Below, piece after piece: positions 14,565-47,024 of a stretch of DNA of 64,000 nt. The translations under genes were made by a program, and so were the position numbers. The notes under the pieces were generated by a model. It saw nothing but the letters and a program-made list of their open reading frames with translations. It did not search any database and was not told the origin of the DNA. The first letter of the stretch is position 1, and every line of letters begins with the position of its first letter. Origin of the DNA: a virus (lineage: Duplodnaviria; Caudoviricetes). The stretch lies in IMG/VR virus record IMGVR_UViG_3300014205_000011, positions 24,246 through 88,245 of that record; one strand, 5' to 3'.

Positions 14565-15915
14565 TATATAATTTTAATACGTTTGTTATTTGTGTTCTTA
14601 TTTTGTTTTTTAACTGATTGTAAATATCTATATAAACTTGATCTGATATTGCATTATTTTCTTCTATTTTTAACCAAGCTTTTTCAAATTCTATATCTTC
14701 TTCTTCTACTGGTAAAAAAGATAAAGGTAGTTGAATATCACCAAATTTTGCTGAAAGACCTTCTACATCATATTTATCTTCAAATAACTTAACAGGAGAT
14801 TTAAACTTTTTAGACATTAACTGTGTAGTTGTTGGCATATAATCAAAACATAATTTATTCACTACTCCTTTAATATCATACTGTTCATCAAATGTAATTT
14901 GAAGATTTGAAGCAACATATACTATTTTAGTTATACATTCCATAATATCCAATCCTCTAGCAATTAAAGCATTGGCTACAGCATTAGTATTTATTGAATT
15001 ATTTGAACCAGTTTCTCTATGTGACAATGCTTGTTTTATGTTAACATAAGGCCCCCCTTCAAGTGATTCATAGCTTACATAGTCACACAAATGATACAAA
15101 AATGAAGTTAATACTACAGGTTTAAATTCTCTACATAAATTACCCCATAATTGAGTAATGGCAGAGTCGCCTAAACAAAAAGCATTATAACTACCATGAG
15201 AATTACTCACACTTAAATGTGAATGTAAATATAAATAATTATTAATTATATCAGAAGAATTAAATGTAACTCTAGTACCATTAACACTACCTACAGCAGC
15301 ACATTTATCATTTGATACTACTCTAATCTTAACCAATAAATCTCTAATTATTTTAAAATGTTTTTTTGAGTTAGTAATAATTACTTTAGGAAACTTAATG
15401 TAAAAGTCTGCTGTATAAGGATATGTATCAGTTACAGTATAAGCATAATTACCTTCACCAAATATACTAGAAGCATCTTTTATAAAATATTCAACAGCAT
15501 CTTCTATTCTTTTCTTAGCTGTTTTAACATCTATAAATTTTATAAGTGAACCAAGAGCTGTTATTTGATGATAATGAAAAGTATTATAAGCAAATTTGTT
15601 AATAATTTTAATTCTACTAAGCACATCTTGTATAAACACTGCTGTTAATTTAGAACTTGTTTCTGCAGTAAAAAATAAAATATCATATTTATCTGTAGTA
15701 ATTCTGTCATAATAATAATATCTAATATCTGATAAAATTCTATCACTAAAATTACTAATGTCTATTTCTAATTCATTTAAAGCATCATTAGTATTTGTTA
15801 TCATAGAATTTTTCCACAATACATATTGCATATAGCCTAAGTTATCTACAGCTTTTTTTACTTCATCAATATTTTTTAATTTTAGTTCATCTAACCGTTT
15901 TGTATCTATAATCAT
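14476..15915 (-). CDS. Prokaryotic E2-like conjugating enzyme domain protein
   Basis: YLHSHL...AFCLGDS...YESLEGGPY resembles the E2 HPN...CL core; lies between Ubl and JAB. Confidence 0.7.
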   Translation of the reverse strand: MIIDTKRLDELKLKNIDEVKKAVDNLGYMQYVLWKNSMITNTNDALNELEIDISNFSDRILSDIRYYYYDRITTDKYDILFFTAETSSKLTAVFIQDVLSRIKIINKFAYNTFHYHQITALGSLIKFIDVKTAKKRIEDAVEYFIKDASSIFGEGNYAYTVTDTYPYTADFYIKFPKVIITNSKKHFKIIRDLLVKIRVVSNDKCAAVGSVNGTRVTFNSSDIINNYLYLHSHLSVSNSHGSYNAFCLGDSAITQLWGNLCREFKPVVLTSFLYHLCDYVSYESLEGGPYVNIKQALSHRETGSNNSINTNAVANALIARGLDIMECITKIVYVASNLQITFDEQYDIKGVVNKLCFDYMPTTTQLMSKKFKSPVKLFEDKYDVEGLSAKFGDIQLPLSFLPVEEEDIEFEKAWLKIEENNAISDQVYIDIYNQLKNKIRTQITNVLKLYSDDYYNSDFCQKRSISSKINWDTYFGVIN

Positions 15916-15930
15916 ATTTTAAAATTAAAT

Positions 15931-15956
15931 AACTAGGAGAACGAAATCTCCTAGTT
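15931..15956 (-). terminator. Hairpin between the Ubl and E2 genes
   Basis: Perfect 10-bp stem AACTAGGAGA/TCTCCTAGTT, then ATTTAATTTT. Confidence 0.65.
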
Positions 15957-15974
15957 ATATGATTAATTAGTGCC

Positions 15975-16223
15975 TTATATAGCACCTTTATGTTTATCTT
16001 CTACTAGGTATATCATGATACCATCACCATTAGGCAATACATCACTAGTTTTCAATACCCATTTATCAGTACCTGTAGTCCATTGTGTACCCATTACAGC
16101 TTTAGTATTAGCATATTGAGGATATTTATCTAAAAATTCTCCCCATGTAGTTATACTGTCATCAATTACACAATCTGTAGGAGCTCCACCAGCTCTACTA
16201 TCTACCATCATTATTGTTCTCAT
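15975..16223 (-). CDS. Ubiquitin-like (beta-grasp) modifier candidate
   Basis: 82 aa; beta-beta-alpha-beta pattern (TIMMVD, ITTWGEFL, DVLP, IMIYLV); ends KHKG-AI; first gene of the E2/JAB/E1 cluster. Confidence 0.65.
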   Translation of the reverse strand: MRTIMMVDSRAGGAPTDCVIDDSITTWGEFLDKYPQYANTKAVMGTQWTTGTDKWVLKTSDVLPNGDGIMIYLVEDKHKGAI

Positions 16224-31382: not shown

Positions 31383-32648
31383 TTAAGCTTGTTGTTGTGA
31401 CTCTTGTGATTCTGTATCTGCTTCACCTTTATCTAATTGTGCTGTTTCCATATGAAGAAAACTTGAATTTTTAGCTTTAGTAACATAAGGTATTATACCA
31501 TCTTTTCTAATACAAATACCTTCTTCAGGTGAACCTTTATCTACAGGTAAACAATCAGGGTTAATCTCTGATAATATCTTTTCTTTATATAACTCTATAT
31601 CAAAGCCTTTATGTTTACCTTGCCATAGTTCAGGTACATATTTTAAAGCATTAGTATTGCAAAACTCTTTTACCTGTTCCCAACTTAAATCACAAGCTAT
31701 ACCATGATTATTAACTATAGCTATCCTGTATATGTACAACTCTGAATTACCTTGACTATATCCATAAGAGTAACCTCCTTGAATAGCTTTATCACCTGCA
31801 TATCCCACTATTTCACCATATAGAATATAGTCCTCTGGTATTACATGCTTAATCAGTTCAAGATGTTGAGCCCATACATCAGTTTCATAAAAACTGGGTT
31901 TACCCACAGTATCTTTAATTACTCTTCTACTACCACATACATAATCATATTCATGAGTTTGTACTTTTACTCCTAACCACTTAAGTATTCTTTCTATAAT
32001 AGTTAATTGCCTTTTAAACAATACTTTACCAAATCTAGCTGATGTACCATGTATCTTTTGAGTAATTATTACAGTATCATCATTTTGATATTTGTTTACA
32101 TTTTTATGATAGTTATCAGTTTCAAAGTGTTGTGGAAACACTTTACTTTCTACTAATGATTCAGTAATATTTCTAGCTTTTTGCTCACCTTTTTCCCTAG
32201 GTACTTTGATTACATACTTTTTACATATTTCTATTCCTTCAATTTCATTAAAGCTATCACCTTCTTTAAATAAAGAATTAATATTTTCAGGAGAAGCAGC
32301 AAATATATACATAAGTGAGCTTAATGGCATAAATAAAGCAGAAGAAGTATGACCTCTAAATTTTACAGCTTTTACTCTTCTGTTATCTTCTATGTAACCT
32401 TTTTGAGTTGTATCAATGTTTAGGTTACTGTGTCTGAACAGATTATTCTGTTTGCAATACTCTTCTGATAGCTGTACTTCAGCAGTAAACAATATGCCTA
32501 AGTCACCTATTTGAGTATCTTTGCTTACTATAGCTTGATAACCATATATAGGAAATCCTACTACATTATCACAATTATCAAGTTTAACTATATTGTGTAC
32601 TTTAACTATAGTAGCACAATAATTTTCATTTGTTACTTTTAAATTCAT
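31383..32648 (-). CDS. RNA ligase (Rnl2/DRB0094-like) with an N-terminal OB-like domain
   Basis: Motifs TQKIHGTS, LYGEIVG, EEGICIR, VTKAKN. Confidence 0.85.
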   Translation of the reverse strand: MNLKVTNENYCATIVKVHNIVKLDNCDNVVGFPIYGYQAIVSKDTQIGDLGILFTAEVQLSEEYCKQNNLFRHSNLNIDTTQKGYIEDNRRVKAVKFRGHTSSALFMPLSSLMYIFAASPENINSLFKEGDSFNEIEGIEICKKYVIKVPREKGEQKARNITESLVESKVFPQHFETDNYHKNVNKYQNDDTVIITQKIHGTSARFGKVLFKRQLTIIERILKWLGVKVQTHEYDYVCGSRRVIKDTVGKPSFYETDVWAQHLELIKHVIPEDYILYGEIVGYAGDKAIQGGYSYGYSQGNSELYIYRIAIVNNHGIACDLSWEQVKEFCNTNALKYVPELWQGKHKGFDIELYKEKILSEINPDCLPVDKGSPEEGICIRKDGIIPYVTKAKNSSFLHMETAQLDKGEADTESQESQQQA

Positions 32649-36524: not shown

Positions 36525-36601
36525 TAGTATTTATGATATGGAGCTATCATTAAAAAATAACAATAACAACTTATAACCAGTATTTGTATCCCTACAATTT
36601 G

Positions 36602-36673
36602 CAGGAGCAATAGGACTTGAACCTATACTTTTAGTTTTGGAGACTAAATTTCTACCAATTGAATTATACTCCC
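36602..36673 (-). tRNA. tRNA-Trp(CCA), no encoded CCA end
   Basis: GGGAGTA/TGCTCCT; TTAGT-CT CCA AA-ACTAA; ATAGG-TTCAAGT-CCTAT. Confidence 0.88.
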
Positions 36674-36764
36674 ATATCTCTCTAACCTCACTAACATTAG
36701 AGAGCCTCTTTTAAAATAATACGGCAAGAACTAAGTGAGTATAAGTATCCCTACTTAAATATTG

Positions 36765-37462: not shown

Positions 37463-37567
37463 TAGAGACTTCTAGACTCGAACTAGAAAGATAAATAATG
37501 AAAAAATAAAACCTTCAAAAACTCATCATTTTACCACCAATTCATGAATTACTTCACTTTAGTCTCT
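37463..37567 (-). ncRNA. tRNA-like element with acceptor stem and T-arm only
   Basis: AGAGACT/AGTCTCT; TCTAG-TTCGAGT-CTAGA; 73-nt non-canonical middle. Confidence 0.55.
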
Positions 37568-42743: not shown

Positions 42744-42930
42744 ATTGTTTATTTATTAGTTTCAATTGGTGTTTTACCTTTATTACTTACTATCCATATA
42801 GTTACAAAAGGTATAAGATTAATACATACTCTTTTATTAAGTTCTGAATAGTAATATCCTATCCATACAGATTGTAATTTTACTGTAATACCTACAGTTA
42901 GTTTACCTTTATATAATATTCTTCTCATAA

Positions 42931-43125
42931 TTATGATTCAAATATATCAGTTGGATGATGTCTAAGCTGTTGAACTAATTCTTTTAATTGTTCACATTGT
43001 TGATCCGCAGCTTTAAGTTTAATATCTATTGTTTGCATAGAAGCTGTATTTCTAGCAATATTTATATTACTATCAATAGCATCTACTATATTTAACATTT
43101 TATTTATAAGTTCTTTTTGTTCCAT
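42931..43125 (-). CDS. Hypothetical coiled-coil protein
   Basis: 64 aa. Confidence 0.5.
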   Translation of the reverse strand: MEQKELINKMLNIVDAIDSNINIARNTASMQTIDIKLKAADQQCEQLKELVQQLRHHPTDIFES

Positions 43126-43145
43126 AATGTTTAAAATTAAAATTG

Positions 43146-43218
43146 TGTAACTATTAGGACTCGAACCTAACCCTCTGAGCTTTTTGACTCATTATACTTC
43201 GCCTGATACTGTAGTTAC
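43146..43218 (-). tRNA. Non-canonical tRNA-like gene (6-nt anticodon loop CAAAAA)
   Basis: GTAACTA/TAGTTAC; TGAGT/GCTCA; TTAGG-TTCGAGT-CCTAA; 73 nt. Confidence 0.6.
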
Positions 43219-43308
43219 AGCCAGATTTATTTACGACACACTATAAATCAAAGTGTAAACAAAATTGCTTTAGGCAACTGTCTATATTAGCTCTAGAAAC
43301 TAATAATG

Positions 43309-43397
43309 TTGTTAAATAAGCGTATTAACCAGCTATTACGACCAGCCCTATCTTTAATAAGGCTAGATTGGGCTCGAACCAATATCTCTTATTTGTA
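43309..43397 (-). tRNA. Circularly permuted tRNA-Val-like gene
   Basis: 3' half (TAC AA ATAAG AGAT, T-arm, CTAGCCT) precedes an 11-nt linker and the 5' half (GGGCTGG, D-arm, CTTAT TT); all four stems pair. Confidence 0.7.
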
Positions 43398-43400
43398 TCT

Positions 43401-43550
43401 TTAAAATGCTTGCATTCCAGCTATAGTAAAAGAGTCACGTTTGTCACTAGCTTTACTTTTTCTACGTTTAGCTGGCATGTTTAAAATGTCTATTTTTGGT
43501 GTGCTATTCTCTTGTTTAGGAGCTGCACCATAATGTTTTAAGTTGTACAT
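43401..43550 (-). CDS. 49-aa basic microprotein missed by the ORF track
   Basis: MYNLKHYG...AGMQAF*; the stop lies 3 nt before the permuted tRNA. Confidence 0.5.
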   Translation of the reverse strand: MYNLKHYGAAPKQENSTPKIDILNMPAKRRKSKASDKRDSFTIAGMQAF

Positions 43551-43591
43551 ATTGTTAAAGGTTTTAAAGTTTAAAAAAATTTATATAATAA

Positions 43592-45482
43592 TTAAAATGT
43601 TAATTGTTCAACATCTGTTATAAGTATTTGATTTGAATTATGATACAAATTATATATATCTTCTTTTCTTGAATATTGATTTACTAGTATAAGTTTAGTA
43701 TTAAACTTAAATAATACATCTTCATTATTGTCTTTACTTATTTTAATAGTAGTATCTATAGTAGATCTTATATCAAATAATAGTTTAGGTTCATAATATA
43801 TCATAATTTATAAATTAATAAGGAATGTATTTACCCATACGATGTCTACGAAGTATTATTATTAGATATTTACCATCATATCCTATTTTTACTTCTTTTT
43901 TAAGGTTACCTCGTTTAAGTTGGCGAGTAATTGATTTAAAATTGTAAGGCATGTTATTAATTGTTTAAAATTTTAAAGTTTAAAATAAACACAGCTTAAC
44001 CTACTGTGTGTGAACCAAAGGACTTACAGGGCATAATCATCTATCATGCTTCAGTTGTGACAATTTATTAATATGTAAGCAAGCCACCAATCTTACACAT
44101 ACTTATACACGTCTGTATAATACTTTTAACCAATCAAAGCATCTACATCTTTCAACGCAATGGCAAGTCTGTCTTCATCAGACATAAATTGCTCAAGTTT
44201 TTGTTTGGCTGTTTTAAGTTTGTTAATCAAATCATGTTGAGTTACTATAGCAACTCTAATTTGAATATCATTTTCCCAAGCATCAAAACTGTATCCTTGC
44301 CATTCAAAAACAGGATAACTATCAAGTTTCAATATGTTAGAAGCTGTTTCATTGTATGCTTGAGATTGTTTGTTTATATATCCCAAAGCACTTATAAGTA
44401 TTTTCAAGTCTTGAGTTTTGTGAATGTAAATAGGTGAGTTTACAGTGTATGAAGGGTTAAACCTAAATTCACCATTAGTTTTGTATTGAGAATCTGCTGT
44501 AGCTTTAATAGCTTTAAGCTTTTCATCAATAGTTGCAAGCTTAGATTGCAAATCTGTTCTAAGTGTTACTGCTTGTGTTGTCATGTTTTTGTTTTTTTAA
44601 AAGTTTTTAAAGACGCTGTAGTACATCCATTTTCGTTCTGGTACTTATGGTGTTGCTACAACGTCTTGTATTTTTAAACATTATGAGAACGCATATATGC
44701 TTTATGAAGGTTTTACAACATTACCTTCATTATTTCTTACTACATTTAAGTATTTACTTGGACTATATCCATGTGTACGCATAAATGCATGATGTTGATT
44801 TTTACGCTTTTTTAACTCTTCTTTTTCTTCTTTAGTTTTACTAAAGATAGCTCTGTTAAGAGTTAAATAAGGCGGATGTAGATTTGCAGCTATCATCATT
44901 TGAGGGTTGTCACAATCAACTGGGCCTCTGTCTAAATCTTTCAAGTTTTTTGGTTTTATTTTCATGGTGTTAATGTTAAATGTTTTTTGTTGCTATGTAC
45001 TTCTAATGATATACCTATAGCTACACCTAAGTAAGCTATTATATCAGGTGTTATTCCATCTGGCATAAGTATTAAAAAATTATCTTGTCCTTCTTCAGTT
45101 ATAGTAATTATTGAAAAAGGCATGTTTTTCTCACGGGCTGTTTCTGTAATAACTTGTATTACTTTAAAAACAACAGAGTCTGAGTATTTTTCTGGTATTG
45201 GTATTTGTAATTGCATAAATTTAATTTTTGTTAAAAATCAGGTGGTAATGTATTAGTTGGTGTTTTATGACTTTCTATTAAAGATTGTAACTTTACAATG
45301 CCAGTTTTTCCTTTATATTCTTCTGAAGTTTCATCCTCATTGATAGTAATTGTTAAAGTTTTAATAAAATGTCCTGTCCATCTCATTGTACAAGATATGC
45401 CTTTTATATTATTAAGAGTGCTCATTATAGATAAAGGTAATTCATCTGTTTTTAATCTACTTGTAGTGTATTCAAATTGCAT
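43592..45482 (-). CDS. Early hypothetical proteins (43592-43804, 44126-44584, 44702-44965, 44962-45216, 45231-45482)
   Basis: ORF track; A-rich Bacteroidota-type initiation regions. Confidence 0.55.
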
Positions 45483-46346: not shown

Positions 46347-46378
46347 AGTAGTGTTGTTTAATTGTAAATGATTTGTTT

Positions 46379-46550
46379 TCCCTCTGCACTCACTTGTAAC
46401 AGTAGTCTAAAGATAGAACTTCATATCTCAATGAATTTATTATATCTTCACCTCTTCAGGTTGCCTATTCTAATACTAACACTAAAGGCTTCTAAGGTAA
46501 TTTTAAGTGTTTTTGTATTTCTACCCTGTTACAAGTGCATATCCTTGGGA
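46379..46550 (-). ncRNA. 6S RNA-like long rod with a central bubble
   Basis: 12-bp CACTTGTAACAG/CTGTTACAAGTG closing stem, unpaired centre, apical TTACCTT/GAGGTGA and GCCT/AGGC stems; 172 nt. Confidence 0.55.
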
Positions 46551-46653
46551 AATATGTTGTGGTGCATTAGTAATAACTTATTAGTAGTGGCCTCAGTATA
46601 TATAGTATTACACTATATGAATGTACCCTCCTAAAATACCTAATAAGTTATAG

Positions 46654-46724
46654 TTGCAAGACTAGGACTCGAACCTAGATTCTATAGAATAAACTATAGT
46701 ATTAACCAATTATATGATCTTGCA
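46654..46724 (-). tRNA. Non-canonical tRNA-like gene (6-nt loop TTTATT)
   Basis: TGCAAGA/TCTTGCA; D-loop AATTGGTTA; TATAG/CTATA; CTAGG-TTCGAGT-CCTAG; 71 nt. Confidence 0.6.
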
Positions 46725-47024
46725 AGCCAAGATTAAATTGAAATTCCTGTAATCATAATTATATTTTTATGAGTCAGTTGATACATCCATATTAATCTAT
46801 TTACATAAGTTGTAGTAATATAAATTCAAGTATAACTACTGTACCTTTATACTACGAAGGTGTGTTTATATGCCTATAAACCTATATGCTTACGTATTGC
46901 CTTGAGCAGTAATATTAACTCTGCTTGTGCACCTGTAAGGTAGGGTATATTACTACGGTCTATGTAAGTATTGTTAAAAGTATTGTTGATATGATGTAAC
47001 AGTTGTGTGAGATGATAAAAGTTA

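Follow-up and report, generated by a model that had tools for sequence, protein, structure and literature searches.

What kind of RNA, if any, is encoded by a short stretch of phage DNA in which the 3' half of a tRNA stands in front of the matching 5' half? The question is raised by positions 43309–43397 (minus strand) of a 64-kb window, the whole stretch of DNA analyzed here, which forms the right-hand part of a virus record of 88,245 bp, complete and bounded by direct terminal repeats, whose G+C content is 30%. The terminase, portal, and major head proteins of this virus give matches to crAss-like families; its TerL is about 40% identical to those of gut crAss-like phages, and Crass_capsid is present in the contigs of its closest relatives. 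The element occupies part of a 275-nt gap (43126–43400) that separates two small orphan ORFs in the early arm of the minus strand. It begins 3–6 nt past the stop codon (43401–43403) of the upstream ORF (49 aa, 43401–43550), while the downstream ORF (64 aa) occupies 42931–43125. Neither of these two ORFs has a homologue among 5.8 billion proteins, and the ORFs around the element could be assigned to no informative family. The early region is tightly packed, and the non-coding gaps longer than 200 nt that were examined (43126–43400, 46347–46873, and 36525–36764) all contain tRNA-like RNAs. A promoter and terminator scan resolved none at the locus, Bacteroidota and crAss-type promoters lying outside the coverage of that scan.

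Read along the minus strand, the element consists of a tRNA 3' half, an 11-nt linker, and the corresponding 5' half. An earlier note on this DNA had described the permuted order, with its break in the anticodon loop, and every piece of that description is present. The 3' half opens with a UAC tail (43395–43397), the anticodon remnant of one loop copy, which is part of UAC-AA (43397–43393). The tail leads into the 5' strand of a closing stem, AAAUAAG (43388–43394), made up of the former anticodon-stem 3' strand proper (AUAAG, 43392–43388) together with A37 and A38. There follow the variable loop AGAU (43384–43387), the T arm AUUGG/UUCGAGC/CCAAU (43367–43383), and the acceptor 3' strand CUAGCCU (43360–43366). 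Beyond the linker UAUUAAAGAUA (43349–43359), the 5' half is composed of the acceptor 5' strand GGGCUGG (43342–43348), a linking UC (43341–43340), the D arm GUAA/UAGCUGGUUA/AUAC (43322–43339), a single G (43321), and the 3' strand of the closing stem, CUUAUUU (43314–43320), in which the former anticodon-stem 5' strand (CUUAU, 43320–43316) is extended by U32 and U33. It ends in an AACAA tail (43309–43313), the remainder of one anticodon-loop copy, which is single-stranded in the folds; UU-AAC-AA (43315–43309) thus follows directly on CUUAU. These assignments were read from the sequence, and those of the variable loop, the T and D arms, and both acceptor strands were also taken from the cloverleaf drawn by ARAGORN for the rearranged sequence.

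All four stems had been said to pair, which holds for the acceptor (7/7 pairs between 43360–43366 and 43342–43348, two of them G-U), the anticodon stem (5/5), and the T stem (5/5), whereas the D stem makes three of its four pairs. The repeat of ACAA at both ends is real as well, and the two loop remnants that contain it, UACAA and UUAACAA, are both almost intact. In the minimum-energy fold, 43388–43394 pairs 7/7 with 43314–43320, and two of the 7 bp in this closing helix come from A37-A38 of one loop copy, paired with U32-U33 of the other. The linker, formerly taken for a plain spacer, pairs with itself instead: it adds U-A, A-U, U-A, and U-G pairs to the acceptor, producing an 11-bp hairpin with a 3-nt AAA loop. 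The acceptor end is as atypical as had been noticed, with U at position 73 and no CCA, and position −1 is paired with 73. All placeable invariant nucleotides of the top half are canonical (G18, G19, and A21 in the D arm; G53, U54, U55, C56, A58, and C61 in the T arm; and U8 and G26), and the A15-U48 pair is present. The folding energy of the region is unremarkable (z = −1.4), and the T-arm 17-mer of the element is common in ordinary phage tRNAs.

Is this resemblance to a tRNA more than chance? In its native order the element receives no ARAGORN call and no Rfam match at the gathering score or at E ≤ 10, and it does not form the contiguous cloverleaf with a free acceptor end that characterizes a canonical tRNA (RF00005). 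Once the two halves have been exchanged, ARAGORN with its default settings does recognize a tRNA-Val, with anticodon UAC or AAC according to where the junction is placed, which agrees with the Val loop previously obtained by joining the ends. A scan for the permuted architecture in 829 kb of phage DNA returned matches at three loci, namely the element and two pairs of neighboring tRNA genes (a Gln-Gln pair in contig L030 and a pair in L023/L025), while 40 shuffles of the same 829 kb gave 6 matches, or about 0.016 per 88-kb genome. Since the architecture stands far above the shuffle level, the element is not a chance arrangement; it is a tRNA-derived, circularly permuted, acceptor-closed RNA module.

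Modules of this shape are known. YrlA (Rfam RF02553) is a tRNA-like Y RNA module that is bound by Rsr/Ro60 and occurs in bacteria and mycobacteriophages (PMC4201824; 10.1101/312249), having been described in 254 bacteria and 22 phages (Chen et al., 2014, PMC4201824). The permuted, acceptor-closed topology is therefore of a known kind in phages, as is also evident from the phage examples L030, L054, L055, and L058 described below, and the statement in the earlier note that none were known there has to be withdrawn. The parts of the element follow the Rfam YrlA consensus order (closing stem, T arm, closed acceptor hairpin, D arm, closing stem), and a stem in the position of the anticodon stem encloses the module. 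Shared with YrlA are a variable loop of 4 nt, a loop of 3 nt that caps the acceptor-like stem, two linking nucleotides, the lack of a free CCA end, and a presumed origin from a tRNA dimer, the last being the model of Sim and Wolin for such RNAs (as cited in 10.1101/312249). The differences are equally clear. The acceptor helix has 7+4 bp in the element and about 6 bp in YrlA, and the closing stem, in contrast to that of YrlA, is a plain 5+2-bp former anticodon stem that keeps both anticodon-loop remnants. The D- and T-stem sequences are nearly invariant in YrlA (Chen et al., 2014, PMC4201824), yet the consensus GCUC/GAGC (D) and GCGGG/CCCGC (T) stems are not kept in the element.

The part of a Y RNA that binds Ro60 is absent too. 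In YrlA this module is built as a long helix at the end of the RNA, and the motif GNCGAAN0-1G lies close to the 5' end (Chen et al., 2014, PMC4201824); the element has neither, only a 7-bp stem whose flanks fold locally, and a constrained fold shows no Ro60-type outer stem built from the remnants in the flanks. The Rfam YrlA model (gathering score 69 bits) gave no match at E ≤ 10, either in 42800–43800 or in the whole genome. YrlA genes are expected to have a Ro60 gene on the same strand within about 4 kb, and no Ro60/TROVE gene is found anywhere in the complete 88-kb genome. No DUF2828 gene was matched in this genome, while a DUF2828 search of 20 large phage records was uninformative, since not even its controls matched. 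The element is thus not a member of the YrlA family. It could nevertheless act as an orphan Y RNA bound by the Ro60 (Rsr) of the bacterial host: its topology is that of YrlA, crAss-like phages infect Bacteroidota, a phylum that has TROVE genes (a Bacteroides thetaiotaomicron control matched), and the sole GNCGAAG of the window lies 110 nt downstream, in a neighboring tRNA-like element (43197–43203). With the motif and the long helix missing from the element itself, the Rfam model silent, and the consensus stem sequences not kept, this explanation is very unlikely.

The scan for the permuted architecture also led to L030, an unrelated IMG/VR phage contig, where the YrlA consensus order was found on a Ro60-linked RNA (15573–15688). 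One L030 RNA matches Rfam YrlA with 37.8 bits (E = 2.8e-6), below the gathering score. About five tandem Y-RNA-like units (15440–16030) follow four tRNA genes in this contig; the units have the ends GGUGUA...AGUUACUUC and UUGUUCCC in common, and two of them carry the permuted tRNA module of T arm, closed acceptor, and D arm. A TROVE (Ro60) gene encoding 499 aa begins directly downstream of the array, at L030:16032 (G012:C1:48285–49079).

Further permuted modules were found with R1, a covariance model built from the window element and used on IMG/VR phages. It identified three permuted, acceptor-closed tRNA modules, all on the minus strand (L054:3482–3551, L055:10764–10837, and L058:3015–3083). 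They are located among tRNA genes in contigs of 20–349 kb, their 7-bp acceptors covary, and the L054 version is identical across five contigs. As in the element, a T arm is followed by a closed 7-bp acceptor and then by a D arm, with an AT-rich D loop of phage type (AGCUGGUUAA) and the T loop UUCGAG. The modules are, however, broken at the variable loop and not in the anticodon loop, and their linkers are unpaired and contain G(C/U)CA, whereas that of the element is fully paired. They also keep intact anticodon arms (GUU, AUU, and UUU), an outer clamp stem, and the motif ACAGUAA or ACAAUAC. No intact anticodon arm follows the D arm of the element, in which the partner of CUUAU, AUAAG, lies upstream of the T arm, and its flanks, compared with those of the three modules, show no outer clamp stem with an ACAGYAA-type motif. 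Nor is there an ACAGCAA handle near it; the ten ACAGCAA sites in the window are as many as expected by chance, none of them near a tRNA-like element. To our knowledge, there is no publication on permuted mimics of large phages with a clamp stem and an ACAGYAA-type motif. Compared with YrlA and these mimics, a break within the anticodon loop with both loop remnants surviving is unique to the element.

A break at this position is familiar from permuted tRNA genes, which occur in Cyanidioschyzon merolae, prasinophyte algae, and some archaea (Soma 2007, Maruyama 2010, and Chan 2011, as referred to in 10.1101/312249), and a permuted tRNA has been reported in the algal virus BpV1 (PMC3673656). As in all of these, the 3' half of the element comes first, the acceptor is closed by a short intervening sequence, and the anticodon loop is interrupted; as in the algal and archaeal genes, joining the ends restores a cloverleaf with a 7-nt anticodon loop. 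The algal and archaeal precursors, however, form a bulge-helix-bulge at the junction that is cut by the archaeal/eukaryal splicing endonuclease, while the element has no such motif: outside the 7-bp helix, the folds show no pairing between the UAC and AACAA tails or between the flanks beyond them. The linker is also unlike those of the algal and archaeal permuted precursors in being a stable helix extension without CCA.

It was nonetheless considered whether the element could be a true permuted pre-tRNA, cut within the duplicated anticodon loop, sealed by an RNA ligase of the phage or the host, and relieved of its linker or opened at the acceptor, so as to give a working or a deliberately nicked tRNA-Val. 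Among the genes of the phage are those for an RNA ligase and a metallophosphoesterase, little is missing from the two loop remnants, and the product of in silico joining is accepted by ARAGORN as tRNA-Val. The ligase (31383–32648), about 11 kb away, matches PF09414 and has a PHA02142-type OB domain that falls below the Pfam cut-off; we take it to be a nick-sealing enzyme of the Rnl2/Rnl5 type and not a T4 Rnl1-type tRNA repair ligase, which counts against the proposal. Joining inside the repeated ACAA yields the anticodon AAC, which is not normally used for Val in bacteria, and bacterial ValRS prefers A73 where the element has U73. The acceptor is sealed in its 11-bp hairpin without CCA, the folds contain neither a bulge-helix-bulge nor another defined cleavage structure, and Rfam shows no group I intron halves in 42800–43800. 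A splicing endonuclease, moreover, is unreported in bacteria (Wang et al., 2018, 10.1101/312249). A permuted pre-tRNA is accordingly extremely unlikely. The earlier note had offered two functions, and of these the tRNA-Val sealed by the phage ligase falls with this reading, while the decoy or mimic survives as the one favored below.

Other RNAs in permuted order were also compared and rejected. Two-piece tmRNAs, the products of circularly permuted ssrA genes in alpha-proteobacteria and cyanobacteria, offer a bacterial precedent for a permuted tRNA-like gene: their T arm and acceptor 3' strand stand at the front, as in the element, and the loop between the two acceptor strands is excised. Distinctive of a tmRNA are the alanine identity pair G3-U70, CCA, pseudoknots, and a reading frame for the tag; ARAGORN finds no permuted tmRNA, and the acceptor pair in question is G3-C70, not G3-U70. 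A permuted group I intron-exon arrangement was dismissed on the same absence of an Rfam intron from 42800–43800.

If the element does not mature into a tRNA, it might still be processed as one. In M. smegmatis, YrlA with its 7-bp acceptor is cleaved by RNase P and acquires CCA (Chen et al., 2014, PMC4201824). The element could be an RNA-processing signal of this sort, with RNase P, possibly together with 3' trimming and CCA addition, cutting the closed acceptor hairpin; the cut would divide an early polycistronic transcript into two products, each with a tRNA-like end resistant to nucleases. Along with this mycobacterial precedent, a 7-bp acceptor stacked on a 5-bp T stem is the main RNase P determinant, and the location just past a stop codon, within an operon, is suitable. 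Against this, the pair between positions −1 and 73 is continued by three further pairs, and such pairing disfavors RNase P cleavage at the canonical site. The linker also holds neither CCA nor RCCA, whereas G(C/U)CA is present in those of L054, L055, and L058. A role as a processing signal is unlikely on balance.

Relatives might be expected to decide whether the element is maintained, and several searches were made for them. Neither the locus nor the element gave a blastn match among 50,697 phage records. Scans with exact and degenerate patterns, which included an exact 20-mer of the element in IMG/VR and its T-arm-to-D-arm pattern in JGI metagenomes, found no homologue, and the T-arm and D-arm 17-mers matched only unrelated ordinary tRNAs and a coding region in IMG/VR. 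With the metallophosphoesterase as query, only unrelated phages were obtained (29–41% identical), and TerL as query gave nothing in IMG/VR. TerL relatives are present in the protein database, at 74, 73, 69, 66, and 53% identity; in the nearest genomes (66–74% TerL identity), the early region is unrelated, with almost no early proteins in common with the window, and the permuted module is absent from the contig portions of the TerL relatives that were searched. The same order with covariation, proposed before as a check, is therefore not available, as none of the relatives searched carries the element; since no homologue was found, there is no covariation or conservation to show selection on it. 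One of these relatives, with 69% TerL identity, has features of its own: a 72-aa protein with a Pfam match to RF-1 (peptide chain release factor) is encoded beside a tRNA-Arg(UCU) (L050:2530–2748, minus strand), and its TerL (L050:10001–13117) contains an intein with a LAGLIDADG endonuclease and measures 1038 aa, compared with 657 aa in the window.

The history of the element has to be judged from the locus itself. Its topology makes an origin from a tRNA dimer likely, with remnants in the flanks only hinting at it. On one side, ATAGCTGG (43417–43424, minus strand) is identical to an 8-mer of the intact D arm, with which it is roughly colinear, and may be a D-loop relic of a lost first tRNA copy; it now lies inside the 3' end of the 49-aa ORF, and the local alignment of this flank has p = 0.04 against shuffles and 0.31 against random genome segments. 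On the other side, 43280–43304 (minus strand; ATTAG/TTTCTAGAG/CTAAT/ATAGAC) may go back to the T arm and acceptor 3' strand of a second copy, now lost (alignment p = 0.08 against shuffles and 0.13 against random genome segments) and still forms a hairpin. As remnants of a tRNA dimer, these flanking sequences are suggestive only.

The same history could, however, have left nothing more than a functionless relic, in which a tandem tRNA-Val duplication lost its outer halves and the inner junction between a 3' half and a 5' half was left over, unused. Two adjacent paralogous tRNAs give the permuted pattern automatically, as the L030 Gln-Gln and L023/L025 pairs demonstrate and as has been cautioned for tRNA dimers (Chen et al., 2014, PMC4201824). 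The weak likeness of the flanks to decayed halves would fit, as would the other defective tRNA-like sequences with 6-nt anticodon loops in this genome and the uniqueness of the element, without homologue or partner gene. Neutral decay, on the other hand, should also break the approximately 20 inner pairs and the invariant loop bases, and none of them is broken. The linker makes four extra pairs, and the gene spacing indicates that useless DNA is rarely kept in the streamlined early regions of phages. If the relics are real, ruined outer halves beside intact inner halves would imply selection on the permuted unit, an argument that is weakened if the rearrangement is very recent or the similarity of the relics spurious. 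A functionless relic is thus possible, although rather doubtful.

Elsewhere in the window, R1 gave a weak match (18.9 bits, E = 0.011) at 36554–36637 (minus strand), covering the 3' half of a tRNA-Trp gene and the sequence that follows. This stretch is possibly the decayed 5' half of a second copy, and partial tRNA duplications may recur in this genome. A 10-mer shared with the tRNA-Trp trailer, GATACAAATA, has only three exact copies and was discarded as a motif.

We tentatively favor a reading in which the element is a non-decoding tRNA mimic, which is quite possible, if still short of probable. It probably arose from two neighboring Val-type tRNA copies, the first of which left its T-arm half and the second its D-arm half, and it would be transcribed together with the minus-strand early genes. 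The RNA is predicted to fold into a tRNA-like L with its amino-acid end sealed by the 11-bp hairpin and its decoding end formed by the 7-bp stem and two short single-stranded tails, so that it could be neither charged nor used in decoding. What it would offer to a protein or RNA that recognizes tRNA shape is the top half of acceptor and T arm together with the D/T elbow; candidate targets are RNase P, modification enzymes, or a host factor that targets tRNAs, and the tRNA-like module of the YrlA Y RNAs would be the model for such a mimic. The self-complementary linker fits a closed hairpin that may have been selected. Counted against the mimic are the uniqueness of the element, the lack of an encoded partner, and the fact that tRNA dimers yield the pattern for free.

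In favor of a role, the same phage has three other non-decoding tRNA-like elements whose top halves are intact, at 46654–46724, 43145–43218, and approximately 37463–37567, all on the minus strand. That at 43145–43218, 95 nt downstream of the permuted element, has a perfect 7-bp acceptor and T arm and a 6-nt loop (CAAAAA) in the anticodon position, and it is called by ARAGORN only at relaxed settings. Its D-loop region holds the GNCGAAG mentioned above, the only one in the 64-kb window, which matches the Ro60-associated GNCGAAN0-1G (PMC4201824); a 6-nt anticodon-like loop has been described in D. radiodurans Yrn1. The element at 46654–46724 is an Rfam tRNA (42.7 bits) with flawless stems and a 6-nt anticodon loop, UUUAUU, for which ARAGORN gives a 2-base anticodon; its leader (TCTTGGCT) resembles that of 43145–43218 (TCTGGCT). 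In the third, an RNA of about 105 nt, the acceptor and T arm are perfect and the lower half has been rebuilt. The relative with 74% TerL identity has a similarly designed 135-nt element in its early region (L048:4425–4565, minus strand), with some similarity in the internal sequence; it is possibly the counterpart of this RNA, and the proteins around it are unrelated to those of the window.

What the element means for this phage depends on which reading is correct. If it were only a relic, it would serve as a warning that tandem tRNA genes can make convincing pseudo-permuted tRNAs, while a permuted pre-tRNA, if true, would be the first case of a maturation pathway for permuted tRNAs in the bacterial world. 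Provided that the RNA is made and stable, this crAss-like phage would have a tRNA mimic of YrlA topology that lacks a Ro60 module and a handle and is accompanied by no Ro-like gene, and the "inside-out tRNA" would be a scaffold usable on its own. With both anticodon-loop copies and possible outer-half remnants kept, it would appear as a young case of the descent from tRNA dimers that has been proposed for such RNAs. The presence of four tRNA look-alikes in one genome points to tRNA mimicry as a theme of the early program of this phage, possibly directed against host enzymes or defenses that recognize tRNAs.
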